Source: Planctomycetota bacterium (GTDB lineage Bacteria > Planctomycetota > SZUA-567 > H5-PLA8). From it: a DNA stretch of 55,444 bases. Positions 4,117-12,116 of the stretch are shown here, piece after piece (positions within the stretch are counted from its first letter, which is position 1; each line of letters starts with the position of its first letter). The notes beneath the pieces are model-generated. The model did not search any database. It had not been told where the DNA came from and saw only the letters and a program-made list of their open reading frames with translations. The stretch covers positions 1 to 55,444 of the forward strand of contig BTVV01000034.1 of NCBI GenBank assembly GCA_045863855.1, in the 5' to 3' direction. The translations under genes were made by a program, and so were the position numbers.

Positions 4117-5739
4117 TCACTCGCCGCGAGCTGCGCACAGATCGTCCCAATTCAGTCCGAAACGCAGCAGATATTTGCGCAGCCGGTCGGCGTCGTTGGA
4201 CGTTTTACGCTGAGCGCGCGACCGTTCGAACAACCGCCTGCCGGCGTCCGAGAGCGATCGCGAGCGCCGGCAGACTTCGACTACGCGCTCCAGTTGCAGC
4301 CGGTCGAACAAGTCCAGTTCTTCGAGCCGCGTTGGCCCCATCAACGTCTCGAGCGCGCCATCGCCTCCGGCCTCCTGCGGATCGGCCTTCCACGCCGCGC
4401 GCAGGCGCTCGAGTTCTTCCTCGACCTCCTCGGGCGAGATGCGTCCGCCCGGCGCGAGCGTAGCCATCCGGTACACCGCACCGTTCAAATCGCGGAAGTT
4501 GCCCAGCCAAGCCGACTGCTCCGAGCGCGCGAAAGCGAGAAATCGTTCGCGCCCTTCGCGCGTGAACGAAACGTGCTGGCCCGACTGCCGAGCGTAGGCT
4601 TCCAGTTCGTAGTCCAGATTCGGAGCGATGTCTTCGCGGCGTTCGGCCAGTCCGGGCAACCGGAAGGTCCACAAATCGATGCGCGCAAGCAAGTCTTCTC
4701 GGAAACGGCCGGCGCCGACTGCGCGGTGCAAGTCGCGGTTCGTCCCGGCAATCAGCAGAAAATCGCTCCGCGCCTCACGGTCGGCGCCCACCGGCAGGAA
4801 TACCTTCTCCTCGATCGCGCGCAGCAGCATCGCCTGCTCGTCGGAACCCAGTTCCCCGATCTCGTCGAGGAATAGCACTCCCCCGTCGGCGGCGCGCAGA
4901 AGCCCCTCGCGGTCGCGTGTCGCGCCGGTGAACGCGCCTTTCTCGTGTCCGAAAAGCGCCGACATCGCCGCATCGCCGCGCAACGTCGCGCAGTTCACTT
5001 CGACGAAAGACCCGCGAACCAGGTTCCGGCTCTTGCGCAGTTCGTAGATCCGCCGCGCCAGGAGGGACTTGCCCGCGCCCGTCGGCCCGGTCAGCAACAG
5101 CGGTGCGCGGCTGGCAACCGCCACCTGTTCGATCCGCTCGATCAGCTTGTTGAAGCCCGCGTTGCGCGTCTCGATTCCAGACTTGAGGAACGACGCGCCC
5201 TCCTTCATCTCCTTGCGAAAGCGCGAAGCCAGACGGTCATACTTGGATAGATCCAGGTCGATGATCTTGTACGCGCCTGGTTCGCCCGAAGCCCGCTGCG
5301 CGGGCGGTTCGGTCTGCACCAGCCGCGCGGGAAAGTAATGCGTCTCGGTCAGCAGGAACAAACAAATCTGCGCGACATGCGTGCCCGTGGTGATGTGGAT
5401 CAGGTAATCCTCGCGGTCCGTATCGAATGCGTAGCCGCGCGCGAAATCGTGCAGCGCTCCGTACACTTCCTCGAAGTCCCACGGATCGCGGATCTGAAGC
5501 ACATGGCGGCGCACCTCGGTTTCGGGCGAGACCGTACGAATGTCGGCGTCGATCAGCTTGCCGAGGGCCTCGAAGCGCGGCTGCACGAGCAACTCGAAAC
5601 GCGAGACCAGCAAATCCTCGTGCTGGCACAACGCCACGCTGGGCCGCCAGCGTTCCCATCGCCCGGCGTTCCGTCCTTGATCCAGGGTCGGGCCCAGCAG
5701 GCCGATCAAGACGGTGGGCTTGGTCTTATCCTGCTTCAT
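4117..5739 (-). CDS. rtcR: RNA repair transcriptional activator RtcR (CARF + sigma54 AAA+)
   Basis: N-terminal 'RWERWRPSV...DPWDFEEVYGALHDF...HITTGTHVAQIC', Walker A GPTGAGKS, GAFTGA, FLDEIGEL, C-terminal 'NDADRLRKYL'. Confidence 0.97.
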   Translation of the reverse strand: MKQDKTKPTVLIGLLGPTLDQGRNAGRWERWRPSVALCQHEDLLVSRFELLVQPRFEALGKLIDADIRTVSPETEVRRHVLQIRDPWDFEEVYGALHDFARGYAFDTDREDYLIHITTGTHVAQICLFLLTETHYFPARLVQTEPPAQRASGEPGAYKIIDLDLSKYDRLASRFRKEMKEGASFLKSGIETRNAGFNKLIERIEQVAVASRAPLLLTGPTGAGKSLLARRIYELRKSRNLVRGSFVEVNCATLRGDAAMSALFGHEKGAFTGATRDREGLLRAADGGVLFLDEIGELGSDEQAMLLRAIEEKVFLPVGADREARSDFLLIAGTNRDLHRAVGAGRFREDLLARIDLWTFRLPGLAERREDIAPNLDYELEAYARQSGQHVSFTREGRERFLAFARSEQSAWLGNFRDLNGAVYRMATLAPGGRISPEEVEEELERLRAAWKADPQEAGGDGALETLMGPTRLEELDLFDRLQLERVVEVCRRSRSLSDAGRRLFERSRAQRKTSNDADRLRKYLLRFGLNWDDLCAARGE

Positions 5740-5747
5740 AGCTTATA

Positions 5748-5771
5748 ATCTATACTATTATTATAATAGAT
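5748..5771. promoter_or_regulatory. Candidate RtcR enhancer (inverted repeat ATCTAT-N12-ATAGAT)
   Basis: AT-rich inverted repeat next to the rtcR start and about 100 bp upstream of the -24 element. Confidence 0.45.
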
Positions 5772-5871
5772 AGTTCAAGTTCAAAACGTCCGCCCATACC
5801 CAATCCTCTCCCCTTACCGCAAACTCTTACGCAAATAGAAGTTACGGAGAATATCCAAAAAGCATCCAACC

Positions 5872-5887
5872 TGGCCTGCCGTATGCC
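5872..5887 (+). promoter_or_regulatory. Sigma54 (-24/-12) promoter of the rsr-Y RNA-rtcB-rtcA operon
   Basis: TGGCCTGCCGTATGC: GG at 5873-74, exactly 10 nt, GC at 5885-86. Lies next to a divergent enhancer-binding protein gene. Confidence 0.75.
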
Positions 5888-5933: not shown

Positions 5934-7490
5934 ATGGCCCACAAGAACCTCTTCCGCTCGATGCCGGGCAAGCTGATTCCGGCGGCCGATGTGCACAATG
6001 CGGAAGGCGCGAAGGCGTATGCGTACGAGCCGAAGCACAAGCTCGCGCAGGTGGCGGCGACGGGATGCTTTGGCGCGACGTATTACGCGTCGGCGGGCGC
6101 GCAGCTCGAGGCGATTCTGGAGCTGGCGAATCGCGTGGAGCCGCTGTTCGTGGCGCGGACGGCGATTTATGCACGCGAGCGCGGGCACATGAAGGATATG
6201 CCGGCGCTGCTGTGCGCGGTGCTGGCGGCGAAGGCGCCGGGCGTGCTGGCGGAGGTTTTCGAGCGCGTGATCGATAACGGAAAGATGCTGCGCACGTTCG
6301 TGCAGATGCTCCGCTCGGGTGTGACGGGGCGGAAATCGCTGGGCACGCTGCCGAAGCGGCTGGTTCTGCGCTGGCTGGCGAACCGGTCGGACGAGGCGAT
6401 TTTCAAGGCTTCGGTGGGCGCGAGCCCGTCGCTGGCGGATGTGGTGAAGATGGTGCACCCGAAGCCGGCGACGCCGGCGCGGGCGGCGCTGTACGGGTAC
6501 CTGCTGAACAAGGCGCACGACGCGGCGGCGCTGCCGGAGCTGGTGCGCGCGTACGAGGCCTTCAAGCGCGGCGAGTCGCGGGCGGTTCCGGCGGTGCCGT
6601 TCGAGCTGCTGACGGCGCTGGAGCTGGATACGCAGGCGTGGCAGGGGATCGCGCGGCACGCGGGCTGGCAGATGACGCGGATGAATCTGAACACGTTCCT
6701 GCGCCACGGGGTCTTCAAGGACCGGGAGCTGACGGAGCGGATCGCGCAGCGGCTGCGGGACCCGGACGAGATCCGGCGCGCGAAGGTGTTTCCGTACCAG
6801 CTCATGGTGGCTCACGCGCAGGCGCACTCGGACGTTCCGCACGCGGTGCGCATGGCGCTGCTGGATGCGATGGACCGGGCGCTGGCGAACGTGCCGGTTT
6901 TCGCGGGGCGGGTGGCGGTCTGCCCGGACGTCTCGGGTTCGATGTCGAGCGCGGTGACGGGAGCGCGGCCGGGGGCGACGAGCGTGGTCCGCTGCATCGA
7001 CGTGGCGGCGCTGATCGCGGCGGCGATCCTGCGGCAGAATCCGGCGGCGCGGGTGATCCCGTTCGAATCGGACGTGGTGAAGGTGAAACTCAACGCGCGG
7101 GACACGGTGCTGACGAACGCCGAGAAGCTGGCGAAGATCGGCGGCGGCGGGACGAACTGCAGCGCGCCGCTGAAGCTCCTGGCGCGCGAGCGCGCGGAGG
7201 CGGACCTGGTGATCTACGTTTCGGACAACCAGTCGTGGGTGGACGGGCACGCCGGCGGGCGCGGGACGGGGCTGATGGCCGAATGGGAGGCCTTCAAGCA
7301 GCGCAACCCGAAGGCGAAGCTCGTCTGCATCGACCTGCAGCCGTACGGGACGACGCAGGCCCAGGAGCGCGCGGACATCCTGAACGTGGGCGGGTTCTCG
7401 GACCACGTTTTCGAAGTGCTGGATGCCTTCCACCGGGACCGGTTCTCGGGCGCGCACTGGGTGGAGATCATCGAGCAAGTGACGTGGTAG
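5934..7490 (+). CDS. rsr: Ro60-related RNA-binding protein Rsr (TROVE + VWA)
   Basis: 'NAEGAKAY...LAQVAATGCF..TYY', 'MKDMPALL', 'RMNLNTFLRHG', 'VFPYQL', MIDAS 'DVSGSM', 'GGGTNCSAPL', 'SDNQSW'. AGGAG RBS precedes ATG 5934; the track start 5883 falls inside the promoter. Confidence 0.95.
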   Translation: MAHKNLFRSMPGKLIPAADVHNAEGAKAYAYEPKHKLAQVAATGCFGATYYASAGAQLEAILELANRVEPLFVARTAIYARERGHMKDMPALLCAVLAAKAPGVLAEVFERVIDNGKMLRTFVQMLRSGVTGRKSLGTLPKRLVLRWLANRSDEAIFKASVGASPSLADVVKMVHPKPATPARAALYGYLLNKAHDAAALPELVRAYEAFKRGESRAVPAVPFELLTALELDTQAWQGIARHAGWQMTRMNLNTFLRHGVFKDRELTERIAQRLRDPDEIRRAKVFPYQLMVAHAQAHSDVPHAVRMALLDAMDRALANVPVFAGRVAVCPDVSGSMSSAVTGARPGATSVVRCIDVAALIAAAILRQNPAARVIPFESDVVKVKLNARDTVLTNAEKLAKIGGGGTNCSAPLKLLARERAEADLVIYVSDNQSWVDGHAGGRGTGLMAEWEAFKQRNPKAKLVCIDLQPYGTTQAQERADILNVGGFSDHVFEVLDAFHRDRFSGAHWVEIIEQVTW

Positions 7491-7498
7491 CGAAGTAA

Positions 7499-7557
7499 GG
7501 GCGGAATGCCGCCGGGACTACATTTCGATGTCGCGTCTCGGCAACTCTTGTCCGCCC
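7499..7557 (+). ncRNA. Y RNA-like 1 (minimal, about 59 nt)
   Basis: GGGCGGA/TCCGCCC terminal stem, ATGCC/AACTCTTG internal loop, GCCGGGAC/GTCTCGGC upper stem, ACAT-TTCG-ATGT cap. Starts 9 nt after the rsr stop. Confidence 0.7.
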
Positions 7558-7588
7558 GCTTTCGAGAAAGGTGACGTTGTAAAGAGGA

Positions 7589-7703
7589 GTGACGAATGCC
7601 TGCGGGAGTACATGGCAAAAGGTGGCAACACCGACCGGGTTCATATCCCGGACCGGCGCCGGGCAACCGGCGCCGGGTTCTCTCGCAAACTCCTTGTCGT
7701 CAC
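7589..7703 (+). ncRNA. Y RNA-like 2 (T-arm plus long GNRA-capped helix, no D arm)
   Basis: GTGACGA/TCGTCAC stem containing GACGAATG (GNCGAAN0-1G Yrl motif), TGCGGGAG/CTCTCGCA stem, GGTG-GCAA-CACC hairpin, T-arm CCGGG-TTCATAT-CCCGG, 10-bp helix capped by GCAA. Confidence 0.78.
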
Positions 7704-7726
7704 GCGTAACGGAGTGCAGAGCGTAA

Positions 7727-7858
7727 GCGGCGAATGCCGGCGGAACTACATCATCCAAATGACGCGGTTGTGGGTTCGAATCCCATCGCGGGCCCCAAAC
7801 TGGACGGCCCGCGTAGCTCAACGGTAGAGTGCGATGTTTCGCCAACCCTAGTCGCCGT
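7727..7858 (+). ncRNA. yrlA: YrlA-type Y RNA with circularly permuted tRNA-like domain
   Basis: GCGGCGA/TCGCCGT stem with GGCGAATG motif, GGCGGAAC/GTTTCGCC stem, T-arm GTGGG-TTCGAAT-CCCAT (7770-7786), acceptor-like CGCGGGC/GCCCGCG, then TA + D-arm GCTC-AACGGTA-GAGT. Confidence 0.9.
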
Positions 7859-7882
7859 ACTTGGCATCGAAAGCGAGGCTTT

Positions 7883-8560
7883 ATGTTCGATCGAAAGCAG
7901 ATGAAAAAAGCGGTCGAAATACAGGGCCGCAGCTACGCGTTCTTGAAGTGGATGCAGAAAGGGCTACGCGTGCAATCACGACAAGGCGCCTGGTCGCACC
8001 TCGACCTGGATGTCGCGGATGCCGCGGCGGATTGGATTCGCCGCCACTTGACGGGGATCCCGGAGGACGCGCAACCGGCGTGGGATGACATTCCGGTCTT
8101 CGCGCGCTTCCTGAGTTCGTACTTGAAGACCTCCTATCGGATCGTCCGCGCACGGCTCTCACGCTGCGGTTGCTACTGCGACTGGTGCAGCTACATGGGC
8201 TCAGCGTTGCAACCGCGGCAGCCGGGAAAGAAAGCCGCGACCAGCGCCGAAGCACTCAAGCGCGGGTATGTACGGCTACTCGCGGAGGAACTGAAGCTTC
8301 CGTACCTGGAGAGCGACTTCGAGGCGATCCTGAGCGATGCGGCATTGTCGCCGCACATATCGTGGTGTGCATACGGGCAGGAAATGCTGCGCCGCATGCA
8401 TTTCTCGAGCCAAGGTGAAGGGGTACTGGTGCTCTGGCGCGAGATTGCGTGGAACGAGGAAGGCCGAGTACAAGATGGATTCAAGCTCGATGCACAGCGC
8501 TTCCTTTATGCGGAGGAAGCGGTAATAGAAGGCCTGAAGAAAGCGCTGCCGCTTAACTAA
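7883..8560 (+). CDS. Hypothetical protein with CGCYCDWC cysteine cluster
   Basis: GAGG RBS then ATG 7883; 225 aa; fills the gap between yrlA and rtcB. Confidence 0.75.
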   Translation: MFDRKQMKKAVEIQGRSYAFLKWMQKGLRVQSRQGAWSHLDLDVADAAADWIRRHLTGIPEDAQPAWDDIPVFARFLSSYLKTSYRIVRARLSRCGCYCDWCSYMGSALQPRQPGKKAATSAEALKRGYVRLLAEELKLPYLESDFEAILSDAALSPHISWCAYGQEMLRRMHFSSQGEGVLVLWREIAWNEEGRVQDGFKLDAQRFLYAEEAVIEGLKKALPLN

Positions 8561-8573
8561 TAAGGATACTGCC

Positions 8574-10082
8574 ATGCTGACGATCGATCCGAACCAGAAG
8601 CCGGTCATCCATCCCACCGGAGAAGCGACGGGGCTGCTGCCGGCGCGGGAGAGCGCGGGGAAGCCGATCACGGTGATCGGAACCGAGGCGATCCGCGACG
8701 GGTTCGACGCGACGTGCCTGCAGCAGGCGCTGAACGCGCGTTCGGCTCCGGGCGTAAGCGAGCTGGTGCTGAACCCGGACGCGCACGCCGGCTACGGCGC
8801 TCCGGTGGGCTGCGTGCTGGTTTCGCCGACGCACGTCTACCCCGGTCCGGTGGGTGTGGACATCAAGTGCAGCATGAGCCTCCTGCAGCTCGACGTGCCG
8901 GTGGATGCGGTGCGCGAGAAGCGCGTGCGCCGGGCGCTGATCGATGCGATCGTGGTCCGGACGCCGACGGGCGCGGGCCAGGGGCAGCGCGCGGCACCGA
9001 AGAGCCGCCCGGTGGACGAGGCGCTGGGGAAGCGTGCGAGCGTGGAAGGCGCGAGCGCGGCGGTCTGCGAAGCGCTGGGGATTCCGGCGCATTGGGCGGA
9101 GGCGTGCGAGGACGCGTTTCACCGCGGTCACGACGATACGAGCGCGGCGCTGGAAGCGCGCCTGGACGAACTGCTGGCTTCGGGACTCTTCCGCAACTTC
9201 GCGGACAAGATGCGCCAACTCGGCTCGTACGGCGGGGGCAACCATTTCGGGGAATGCGAGGCGGTCGAGGTGGGTACGGACGCGCGGGCGCAGGAAGCGG
9301 CGCGCGTCTTCGGTCTGAAGGACGGCTGCGCCGCGTTCCTCTCGCATTGCGGCTCGCGCGGGTTCGGCAACATTCTGGCGCAGGGGCAGTTCCGCGCGCT
9401 GCAGGGGCACTTCGGAACGTGGGACATCCCGCTGCCGGGCGGGGACCGCGAGCTGGTTTACGCGCCGCTGGGGACGCCGGAGGCCGACCGTTATCTGGAC
9501 GACATGGCGCTGGGCGCGAACTTCGCGACGGTGAACCACATGCTGATCAACGCGCTGGTGCTGGAGGCGTTTCAGGAGATCCTGCCGGGGACGAAGGGCG
9601 AGCTGGTGTATTTCATCAGCCACAACATCGCGCGGAAGGAAGTGGTGAACCAGCAGCCGAGCTGGGTGCACCGCAAGGGGGCGACGCGCGCCTTCCCGGC
9701 GGGGCACCACGCGCTGGCGGGGACGCGCTTCATGGCGACGGGGCATCCGATCCTGCTGCCGGGGAACCCGACGGCGGGGAGCGTGGTGATGGTGGCGGAG
9801 CCCGGCGCGGAGAAGAGCTGCTTCAGCGTGAACCACGGCGCGGGGCGCTGCATGGGGCGCAAGGCGGCGGAGCGCGCGCTGGACCAGGCGCAGATCGACC
9901 GCGAGTTCGAGGAGCTGGATATTATTTACAACGCGCGGCAGTACCCAAAGGACGAGGCGCCGGCGGCGTACAAGAATTTCGGGGAGGTGCTGCGCAGCGT
10001 GGAGGCGGCCGGGCTGGCGCGGCCCGTCGCGAAGCTGAAGGCGCGCTTCGTGATCAAGGATGCGGCGAAGGCGGACGATTGA
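8574..10082 (+). CDS. rtcB: RNA ligase RtcB family
   Basis: PDAHAGYG, VGVDIKC, GGGNHF, SHCGSRG, HN, HRKGAT, HGAGR and DEAPAAYK motifs; AAGGA RBS. Confidence 0.95.
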   Translation: MLTIDPNQKPVIHPTGEATGLLPARESAGKPITVIGTEAIRDGFDATCLQQALNARSAPGVSELVLNPDAHAGYGAPVGCVLVSPTHVYPGPVGVDIKCSMSLLQLDVPVDAVREKRVRRALIDAIVVRTPTGAGQGQRAAPKSRPVDEALGKRASVEGASAAVCEALGIPAHWAEACEDAFHRGHDDTSAALEARLDELLASGLFRNFADKMRQLGSYGGGNHFGECEAVEVGTDARAQEAARVFGLKDGCAAFLSHCGSRGFGNILAQGQFRALQGHFGTWDIPLPGGDRELVYAPLGTPEADRYLDDMALGANFATVNHMLINALVLEAFQEILPGTKGELVYFISHNIARKEVVNQQPSWVHRKGATRAFPAGHHALAGTRFMATGHPILLPGNPTAGSVVMVAEPGAEKSCFSVNHGAGRCMGRKAAERALDQAQIDREFEELDIIYNARQYPKDEAPAAYKNFGEVLRSVEAAGLARPVAKLKARFVIKDAAKADD

Positions 10083-11099: not shown

Positions 11100-12116
11100 A
11101 TGATCCTCATCGACGGCGGGCAGGGCGAAGGCGGCGGGCAGGTGCTGCGCACGGCGTTGGCGCTGGCGCTCGTCACCGGCAAAGCCTTTCGCATCGATAA
11201 CATTCGGGCCAAGCGATCCAAACCGGGGCTGCTGCGCCAGCACCTGACGGCCGTGCAGGCGGCGACGGCCGTCGGCGGCGCGGAGACGCTGGGCGCGACG
11301 ATCGGTTCGAGCCGGCTCGACTTCACGCCCGGCGGGTTGAAGCCCGGCGCGTACCGCTTCGCCGTCGGGACCGCCGGCAGCGCCACGCTGGTGCTCCAGA
11401 CGATCCTCCCGCCGCTGCTGCTGGCCAAAGGCCCGAGCGAATTGGTGCTGGAAGGCGGGACGCATAACCCGTTCGCGCCGCCGTTCGATTTCCTCAGCCA
11501 AGCCTTCCTGCCGCTGCTGAAGCGCATGGGCGCGAAGGTCGAGGCGCGGCTGGAGCGGCACGGCTTTTATCCGGCCGGCGGCGGAAAATTCTCGGTGCGG
11601 ATCGAACCGACTCCGGACCTGCAGCCCCTGGAACTGCTCGAACGCGGCGCGATCGTGCGCCGGTCGGCGCGCGCGCTGCTGGCCAACCTGCCGGTGAGCA
11701 TCGCGCAGCGCGAACTGTCCATCGTGCAGGAGAAGCTGGGGCTGGCGGCGCACGAGATCGCGACCGAAACGATCGAACAGAACCCCGGGCCGGGGAACGT
11801 GCTGCTGGTGGAGCTCGAGAGCGAGCACGTGACGGAAGTCTTCACGGGCTTCGGCGAGAAAGGGCGCAAGGCCGAGGACGTGGCGCGCGCGGCCGTCGAT
11901 CACGCGCGGGCGTACCTGAGCGCGGGCGCGCCGGTGGGCCCGCACCTGGCCGACCAACTTCTGATTCCGCTGGCGCTGGCCGGACGCGGGCGGTTTCGGA
12001 CGTGCGAGCCGAGCGGGCACACGCGGACGAACCTGGACGTCATTCGGCGGTTTCTGGGCGCGGATATTCGGATCGAGGCGGAGACGGAGGGGAAGTGGGT
12101 GGTGGAGGTGAGGTAG
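11100..12116 (+). CDS. rtcA: RNA 3'-terminal phosphate cyclase
   Basis: IDGGQGEGGGQVLR, KPGLLRQHL, GTAGSATLVLQT, GGTHNPFAP, GFYPAGGG, HLADQL. Confidence 0.97.
   Translation: MILIDGGQGEGGGQVLRTALALALVTGKAFRIDNIRAKRSKPGLLRQHLTAVQAATAVGGAETLGATIGSSRLDFTPGGLKPGAYRFAVGTAGSATLVLQTILPPLLLAKGPSELVLEGGTHNPFAPPFDFLSQAFLPLLKRMGAKVEARLERHGFYPAGGGKFSVRIEPTPDLQPLELLERGAIVRRSARALLANLPVSIAQRELSIVQEKLGLAAHEIATETIEQNPGPGNVLLVELESEHVTEVFTGFGEKGRKAEDVARAAVDHARAYLSAGAPVGPHLADQLLIPLALAGRGRFRTCEPSGHTRTNLDVIRRFLGADIRIEAETEGKWVVEVR

Follow-up and report, generated by a model that had tools for sequence, protein, structure and literature searches.

The stretch of DNA analysed here, a 55,444-base contig of an uncultured member of the Planctomycetota (hereafter the window, to the whole of which all coordinates refer), encodes the Ro60 orthologue Rsr, followed on the same strand by a 360-base array of short structured units (7499-7858, plus strand) and by the genes rtcB and rtcA, with the activator gene rtcR reading in the opposite direction upstream of rsr (Table 1). 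A first-pass annotation of the letters had proposed that the array consists of three Y RNAs which share one Ro-binding scaffold and carry different payloads. Our analysis supports this proposal: unit 3 belongs to the Rfam family YrlA, a covariance model of the shared scaffold finds all three units, rsr lies directly upstream and the stems covary. This analysis itself provides the data on sequence and folding, family membership, covariation, neighbouring genes and the conserved arrangement, and our proposals concerning transcription, processing, Rsr binding and partners draw by analogy on published work on other species. Statements on Chen et al. 2014 (PMC4201824), Hughes et al. 2020 (PMC7790460), the Wang et al. 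2018 preprint and a 2025 paper on a phage Ro60 (PMC12135203) refer to the passages of these sources covered here.

The three units are built on a common handle. An outer 7-bp stem (GGGCGGA/UCCGCCC in unit 1, GUGACGA/UCGUCAC in unit 2 and GCGGCGA/UCGCCGU in unit 3) is followed by the bulge AUGCC and by an upper 8-bp stem (GCCGGGAC/GUCUCGGC, UGCGGGAG/CUCUCGCA and GGCGGAAC/GUUUCGCC, respectively), after which come UACAU and the payload; a 3' bulge of 8-9 nt ending in UUG or UAG (AACUCUUG, AACUCCUUG and AACCCUAG) leads back into the outer stem. The outer five stem positions of each unit pair fully with their own partner strand only (5 pairs, as against 2-4 with the partner strands of the other units). 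Minimum free energy (MFE) folding recovered this scaffold in all three units, and the lengths, stems, bulges and payloads that the annotation had listed were confirmed in both the sequence and the folds. The MFE of unit 1 is -27.9 kcal/mol (z -3.6), a value matched by 1 of 200 shuffles; unit 2 gives the strongest signal, with -63.0 (z -6.1) and no shuffle out of 200 reaching it.

Table 1. Features of the rsr locus and its Y RNA array in the window.
Feature	Coordinates	Strand	Remarks
rtcR, sigma-54-dependent activator, divergent	4117..5739	-	Pfam RtcR 1.6e-82, Sigma54_activat 7.9e-49
Candidate sigma-54 -24/-12 element TGGCCTGCCGTATGC	5872..5886	+	GG and GC 12 nt apart
rsr (Ro60 orthologue)	5934..7490 (reading frame open from 5883)	+	Pfam vWA_Ro60 9.1e-18, TROVE 1.4e-08
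Y RNA unit 1	7499..7557	+	59 nt; handle and UUCG-capped mini-hairpin, YrlB-like
Y RNA unit 2	7589..7703	+	115 nt; handle and GCAA hairpin, T-arm-like hairpin, GCAA-capped 10-bp helix; without D-arm
Y RNA unit 3	7727..7858	+	132 nt; handle and full permuted tRNA mimic, YrlA
Orphan reading frame, 225 aa	7883..8560	+	GAGG upstream; between array and rtcB
rtcB RNA ligase	8574..10082	+	Pfam RtcB 7.2e-97
Reading frame, 347 aa	10060-11103		between rtcB and rtcA, few-base overlap at both ends; no Pfam or NCBIfam family
rtcA RNA 3'-phosphate cyclase	11100..12116	+	Pfam RTC 7.9e-81, RTC_insert 2.8e-15
Reading frame, 152 aa	12132-12590		after rtcA; no Pfam or NCBIfam family

The payloads increase in complexity along the array. 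That of unit 1 is a mini-hairpin of 4 bp with a UUCG loop (ACAU-UUCG-AUGU), and in its MFE fold the whole unit forms one long hairpin, with the handle at its base and a small, pyrimidine-rich loop at its tip, as in the hairpin-type second Y RNAs of the published loci. The payload of unit 2 combines a GCAA-capped 4-bp hairpin, a 5-bp T-arm-like hairpin with the loop UUCAUAU and a GCAA-capped 10-bp helix. In unit 3, a canonical T-arm (GGGUUCGAAUCCC), an 8-bp closed stem and a canonical D-arm (GCUCAACGGUAGAGU) make up the permuted tRNA of YrlA RNAs; the tRNA-like domain that defines YrlA is present here as GGGUUCGAAUCCC and UAGCUCAACGGUAGAG around the 8-bp closed stem, whereas unit 2 lacks the D-arm and unit 1 has neither arm. 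A scan of the window with ARAGORN returned no tRNA, and unit 3 is accordingly not a gene of that class.

Unit 3 also gives the single Rfam match that reaches its gathering threshold anywhere in the window: YrlA (RF02553) aligns over its full length (model positions 1-114) to 7727-7861 and scores 70.4 bits, where 69 are required, with an E-value of 3.4e-14. The annotation had suggested searching with Y RNA models, and this search places unit 3 above threshold and units 1 and 2 below it, with YrlB and YrlA, respectively, as their best matches. In the permissive Rfam search of 7400-7950, both of these sub-threshold matches span the full model length, unit 1 has no YrlA match, and the remaining ten matches have E-values of at least 1.7.

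To test units 1 and 2 by means that avoid circularity, we built the covariance model R2 on units of other phyla (37 in all), leaving out the window and its 97%-identical relative L001; the only structure in the model is that of the two handle helices. Run on both strands of the full window, R2 gave exactly three significant matches, whose boundaries are those of the annotated units: unit 3 (7727-7858, 92.1 bits, E 6.8e-23), unit 1 (7499-7557, 53.2 bits, E 2.2e-12) and unit 2 (7589-7703, 51.8 bits, E 5.5e-12), followed by the next match at E 0.63, all of these E-values being rough. An earlier model, R1, made from four 59-nt hairpin units, recovered unit 1 alone, also when run unfiltered; it was replaced by R2 because its length limit excludes long payloads. 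A pairing descriptor (GAAUGC, an outer stem of 7/7 pairs and an upper stem of at least 7/8) likewise found the three units and no other GAAUGC-type unit in the 55-kb window. Among the criteria that Chen et al. 2014 used for YrlA, the motif GNCGAAN0-1G near the 5' end is carried by unit 2 (GACGAAUG) and unit 3 (GGCGAAUG), and all three units lie within 4 kb of a Ro60 orthologue, 9-237 nt past the rsr stop and on the same strand.

Searching with the Rsr protein yielded 241 relatives, of which the best 80 loci were kept; one metagenome-assembled genome of the Planctomycetota (L001) encodes a protein 97% identical to Rsr of the window, and the others are at most 64% identical and spread across many phyla. 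The annotation had noted that the stem sequences differ between the three units and always pair, and this covariation is also present in the homologous loci. When 25 short units were aligned with MAFFT alone and folded with RNAalifold, the 7-bp outer stem was found, with compensatory changes in 5 of its 7 pairs and with two invariant inner pairs, G-C and A-U; in this alignment the ends were in register and the 3' strand of the upper stem was not, so that only the outer stem could be counted. Among 40 units, the three of the window included, 12 of the 15 handle pairs show compensatory changes, and doubly changed cells number 141, compared with 36 +/- 6.6 after shuffling (0/500 as high) and 11-26 with the partner strand slid. 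For 123 units aligned with R2 the corresponding counts are 399, 93 +/- 12 (0/500) and 22-46. It is these compensatory counts and the slid controls that carry evidential weight. Shuffles overstate significance. A comparison of L001 with the window was tried as a further test of covariation and set aside; it offers too few changes, one of which breaks a pair in the long helix of unit 2.

Beyond pairing, the 123 units agree in a set of fixed handle letters. GAAUGC is fixed in 116 of them and UACA directly follows the upper stem in 117; within the upper stem, an A-U pair occurs in 120/121 scored cells and a G.U wobble at position 5 in 105/120, its top pair is fixed as C-G (or G-C), and U-N-G-U-C is kept on the 3' side of the handle. 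The conservation of TACAT, which the annotation had singled out as a possible extra recognition element, is thus borne out, and yet it is not special to this locus: the motif is family-wide and forms part of the Rfam consensus lines of both YrlA ('CUAc') and YrlB ('UUACAUc'). In a YrlA crystal structure, the stem is kinked by a conserved dinucleotide to which the UA of this motif corresponds (Wang et al. 2018 preprint). Units without the tRNA-like fold, whether hairpin-only or D-less, still carry UACA, which is hence a part of the handle and not of that fold. The pair that closes the upper stem is mostly C-G, and the G-C variant (GAG-UACA) seen in unit 2 occurs in a minority. A link between the G-UACA variant and payload class was considered and dropped as weak (1/42 full, 5/29 hairpin and 9/52 partial units).

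Arrays of such units prove to be the usual state of rsr loci. In the 80 loci, the descriptor found 216 units on the rsr strand and 1 on the opposite strand, compared with 0-1 in five block shuffles; eight loci had no unit, 13 had one, 18 two, 15 three, 12 four, 10 five and 4 six. R2, which is more sensitive than the descriptor and recovers all payload classes, gave 347 matches at E <=0.001 in 83 sources, and among the 300 matches listed all lie on the rsr strand. We examined 34 sources other than the window in full (L001-L032 and two loci from genomes of the same family): 25 have at least three units, five have two and one has a single unit, giving 31 with at least one, and the three loci without units are the very ones in which the contig breaks off where rsr ends or close to it. 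Since at least three units is the common state (25/34), the array is not an expansion special to the window, and the novelty that the annotation saw in it was overrated, all the more so as Table S1 of Chen et al. 2014 already records up to three YrlA-like RNAs per planctomycete locus. In the family of the source genome, the Rfam YrlA model matches 4 of 16 other genomes, so that the rsr/YrlA locus is patchy there, and it matches none of 41 scored genomes of families f4-f7 of the same class. This patchiness, together with distant Rsr kin across phyla, suggests horizontal spread of the whole cassette.

We next sorted the payloads of the 123 units by crude rules of our own, in which units of up to 80 nt count as hairpins, those with T-loop and D-arm motifs as full mimics and the rest as partial. 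This gave 29 hairpin, 52 partial and 42 full units, and the three grades recur in several phyla. In the R2 matches, 18 of 30 loci (L091, on the minus strand, among them) have a hairpin as the first unit past rsr; the number rises to 20 if the merged matches of L006 and L016 are separated in the way the descriptor does. A strict rule that the hairpin always precedes the full mimic was rejected: by the strict descriptor this holds in 8 of the 12 loci with both classes, and Rhizobium arrays open with a full mimic. The order seen in the window (hairpin, D-less, full) is found in two other genera of the same family. In G011, whose Rsr is 68% identical, rsr is followed by units of 67 nt (hairpin), 93 nt (D-less) and 131 and 133 nt (full) and then by rtcB; in G005, with an Rsr 54% identical over the aligned part, it is followed by two hairpins, several D-less units and a full mimic. 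The position-2 units of both genomes share with unit 2 an upper stem ending in GGGAG-UACAU, a T-arm-like hairpin and a GNRA-capped helix. The D-less class therefore occupies position 2 past rsr in three planctomycete genera, and it recurs in Acidobacteriota and Verrucomicrobiota, where similar units were found in L007 and L048, respectively.

We tentatively propose, as one possibility that is still doubtful, that hairpin-first arrays of the three grades did not arise by random duplication and reflect a conserved division of labour, with each grade forming an Rsr particle of its own; these might be a plug gating the cavity of Rsr, an adaptor for some other partner and an adaptor for PNPase or a tRNA enzyme. 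If this were true, the D-less class would be a distinct Y RNA subfamily that published models do not detect. Our full-text literature search, which did not reach the main review of the field, found no description of ordered arrays or of the D-less class as such, and both may be in print. A different account, which we consider possible and somewhat unlikely in about the same degree, is that all three RNAs bind Rsr and that their payload differences are neutral, the units being redundant gates of the Rsr cavity without separate effectors. It would fit with sequence conservation being confined to the handle, with payload composition and order that differ between phyla (as in the Rhizobium arrays) and with no effector being known for any YrlB-type RNA; it sits less well with the recurrence of the three payload grades in several phyla, with the retention of the D-less type at position 2 in three genera and with the D and T stems of the full class, which are conserved in sequence, as also described in the Wang et al. 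2018 preprint.

Taken together, our data make it very likely that the 360-base stretch specifies three different bacterial Y RNAs that are co-transcribed with rsr in an RtcR-controlled RNA-repair operon and cut from the polycistronic transcript. Several observations weigh against this conclusion. Unit 1 scores 28.3 bits with YrlB (RF02565; E 0.0013 in a 551-base search) and misses the gathering score of 97, for which reason we call it YrlB-like in architecture and not a member of RF02565, and unit 2 scores 26.6 bits with YrlA (E 0.0016), below the gathering score of 69. In unit 1 the motif (GCGGAAUG) has G in place of C relative to GNCGAAN0-1G, with the opposite strand changed so as to keep the pair. 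The T-like loop of unit 2, UUCAUAU, has U at the position of A58 of a true T-loop and may not fold as one. For unit 3 (MFE -51.1, z -1.2), 20 of 200 shuffles fold at least as stably, so that energy by itself does not set it apart. The percentages of paired cells are inflated: the 100% pairing of the 40 rows carries no weight because these were pre-selected for full pairing, and the 96.5% of 1819 cells that pair among the 123 units (74.0 +/- 0.6 after shuffling) come from rows fitted to the model. The related loci are kin and not independent samples. Contigs from RNA libraries over 7000-8300 match parts of rsr and cover no whole unit, and the candidate promoter TGGCCTGCCGTATGC has three mismatches to what we take to be the sigma-54 consensus.

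Low family scores and a degenerate T-like loop are what one would see if only unit 3 worked and units 1 and 2 were decaying duplicates of YrlA that had lost the tRNA-like module and been kept by chance, and the wide variation in unit number and make-up among loci is as duplication and loss would give. We nevertheless regard such decay as improbable. The handles of both units are perfect (7/7 and 8/8 pairs) with stem sequences that differ and are yet compensated, their payloads are capped by UUCG and GCAA tetraloops, and it is unit 2 that has the strongest fold signal. A hairpin is the first unit past rsr in most of the 30 loci, as is yrlB in Salmonella, and the D-less unit comes second in three genera whose Rsr proteins are 54-68% identical over their aligned parts. 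Moreover, hairpin and T-arm-only Y RNAs are bound by Rsr in the species tested by Chen et al. 2014.

We also weighed whether the structures act in cis on the operon mRNA, by processing, stabilising or attenuating it between rsr and rtcB, and are not free Rsr-binding RNAs. The units are tightly packed inside the operon (8 nt between the rsr stop and unit 1, 31 nt between units 1 and 2, 23 nt between units 2 and 3 and 24 nt from unit 3 to the next open reading frame), and no promoter-like or terminator-like site was found on the plus strand of 7490-7883, which speaks for co-transcription with rsr and is also what a cis role would lead one to expect. Discrete RNAs from the units were, in addition, not seen in the contigs of RNA libraries, which cannot show absence of expression and are uninformative either way. 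In four runs that are RNA or possibly RNA, 5-18% of the sampled words of 7000-8300 were present; contigs matched rsr in X18 (7107-7257 and 7340-7490), X19 (7309-7502) and X20 (7000-7224), matches at 7764-7829 came from foreign tRNA-like contigs in which short T-arm and D-arm stretches run on into unrelated sequence, and run X17, which is probably DNA, covered 7680-7830. The metatranscriptome contigs X19 (7309-7502) and X18 (7340-7490) have at least 99% identity to the 3' part of rsr and end at or just before the start of unit 1. These ends are at most a weak hint of a processing site, being those of single low-depth contigs for which carry-over of DNA is possible.

We give a cis role in place of free RNAs very little credence. 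The conserved motif of the 5' strand is the published Rsr-recognition region and unit 3 is YrlA by Rfam; Salmonella YrlA and YrlB, encoded at the same position, accumulate and bind Rsr (PMC4201824); and a role in the 3' untranslated region leaves unexplained the units that lie upstream or on both sides of rsr in some loci. Such handle units were seen in L002, L024, L034 and L038 (and at 2401-2505 of L007), up to about 2.5 kb away, and the array is therefore not tied to the spacer between rsr and rtcB. A cis role and a role as free RNAs are, moreover, compatible with each other.

Three Y RNAs released from the rsr transcript would thus act as follows. Under RtcR and sigma-54, a single transcript would start ahead of rsr and extend through rtcA, and the three RNAs would be cut from it. 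The handle, which comprises the 7-bp stem with its fixed top G-C and A-U pairs, an asymmetric internal loop of AUGCN facing about 8 nt ending in UUG, the 8-bp stem and UACA, would close the 5' and 3' ends of each RNA and serve as its docking site on the outer face of the Rsr ring. Unit 3, as a YrlA-type mimic with the module that sits in the Rsr-PNPase complexes of Deinococcus and Salmonella, could offer its tRNA-shaped module to PNPase or to another tRNA-recognising factor. Unit 1 as a YrlB-type capped hairpin and unit 2 as an intermediate that lacks the D-arm and has GNRA-capped helices beside its T-arm-like hairpin would form particles without the tRNA-like module and might occupy or gate Rsr either without a PNPase-type partner or with another one. 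Through its set of payloads, one Rsr protein could in this way be issued in several ribonucleoproteins.

The genes around the array fit this picture. Rsr of the window matches the solved structures of Deinococcus radiodurans Rsr (PDB 2nvo, E 3.3e-21) and Xenopus Ro60 (1yvp, E 4e-06), and the order established with Pfam, a divergent rtcR with rsr, rtcB and rtcA on one strand, is that of an RtcR-type rtc operon. At another place the genome encodes PNPase (TIGR03591, 932.9 bits), the effector published for Rsr-Y RNA particles; a search of the genome with PF03726, the helical domain of PNPase, gave no match, which we attribute to a failure of sensitivity because the full-length model matched so strongly. 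In front of rsr, the candidate element TGGCCTGCCGTATGC, whose GG and GC have the expected spacing, sits in a block that is identical in the window and L001, upstream of which the DNA varies, and we infer that it could be the sigma-54 promoter. A pattern search of the window with at most two mismatches to the presumed consensus gave 34 matches, compared with 61 expected, and none in the gap between rtcR and rsr, TGGCCTGCCGTATGC having been missed because of its three mismatches. As this element overlaps the first ATG of the rsr reading frame (5883), rsr probably starts at the second ATG (5934), with the annotated start 51 nt too early; the second ATG is preceded by AGGAG, and most homologues align from residue 18 onward. 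In the same gap, positions 5740-5790 are AT-rich and partly palindromic (TTATAATCTATACTATTATTATAATAGATAG) amid a G+C-rich genome, are largely kept in L001 and contain two sigma-70-like matches; this stretch might serve to bind RtcR or act as the promoter of rtcR.

Three further reading frames lie among these genes. No Pfam or NCBIfam family matches the 225-aa orphan frame that separates the array from rtcB; the frame has nothing above 0.77 in the Atlas, a model of its own with a pLDDT of 0.36 and no tblastn match in L001, L086, L093 or L091. It is absent from two loci of the same family and from L001, where rtcB begins 67 nt past unit 3. Either this is an insertion specific to the strain or the frame is no gene at all, and it may lie outside the Rsr system. 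The 347-aa frame between rtcB and rtcA, by comparison, is probably a real, unnamed member of the rtc operon, because it is 82% identical over 240 residues in L001. Reading frames running across the array itself (7528-7827 on the plus strand, 7468-7845 and 7214-7666 on the minus strand) have no Pfam family, and we take them to be mechanical; frames of 99-150 aa can be called across the array region.

For the annotation of such loci, our results mean that Rfam at its gathering score names one of the three RNAs and that standard annotation leaves about 230 bases of the gap between rsr and rtcB unexplained. Models centred on the handle, as R2 is, recover every class of payload. Ordered three-grade sets that recur across phyla also provide defined candidates for asking whether different Y RNAs bring different partners to Rsr. 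The locus itself is one more instance of the array pattern and leaves the general picture unchanged. Chen et al. 2014 predicted 355 YrlAs in 254 bacteria and 22 phages, with all matches within 4 kb of rsr, and their Table S1 gives one to three YrlAs per planctomycete locus (three in Rhodopirellula baltica); the source lineage of the window is not among the Planctomycetes rows of part 5 of that table. In the passages covered, two Y RNAs per rsr locus, one tRNA-like and one a hairpin, are described for three species, the RNAs other than YrlA are said to have 'eluded bioinformatic discovery', and BLASTN with YrlB found orthologues only in other Salmonella enterica serovars. Units 1 and 2 would have escaped the YrlA search of that survey.

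Compared with these RNAs one by one, unit 3 resembles YrlA (RF02553) of Salmonella Typhimurium and Mycobacterium smegmatis in its handle, in the order of T-arm, closed stem and D-arm, in the UA before the D-stem and in lying within 4 kb of rsr on the same strand, with a full-model match above threshold. Unit 1 shares with Salmonella YrlB the 5' strand GAAUGC...UACAU and the first place past rsr (rsr-yrlB-yrlA) and differs from it in score, as given above, and in its sequence outside the handle, which is unrelated. D. radiodurans Yrn2 is grouped with the YrlBs of Salmonella and M. smegmatis as second, hairpin-type Y RNAs, and M. smegmatis YrlB, which has a T-arm (PMC4201824), is similar to unit 2 in combining a T-arm-like hairpin with the lack of a D-arm. 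In Thermus phage phiLo, Ro60 binds two adjacent Y RNA-like RNAs as well as PNPase (PMC12135203). Its Yrl1 and Yrl2 genes adjoin the Ro60 gene as the units do here, and a CGAA-type motif in a stem-bulge-stem is common to both systems; phiLo differs in having two Y RNAs, which lie upstream of the Ro60 gene and for which the passages covered describe no tRNA-like module, and binding of Ro60 and PNPase in vitro is a result obtained with the phage. The closest parallel in layout is the Salmonella operon rsr-yrlBA-rtcBA, which is under RtcR and sigma-54 (Hughes et al. 2020, PMC7790460, a study that placed the role of Rsr and of Y RNAs other than YrlA outside its scope). The window shows the same order, in which rtcR diverges from a strand that carries rsr, the Y RNAs, rtcB and rtcA in turn, and it differs in holding three Y RNAs instead of two, in its additional reading frames of 225, 347 and 152 aa and in a sigma-54 promoter that here is a candidate. 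The array is thus an ordinary example of bacterial Y RNAs and a typical, well-preserved member of a known system.

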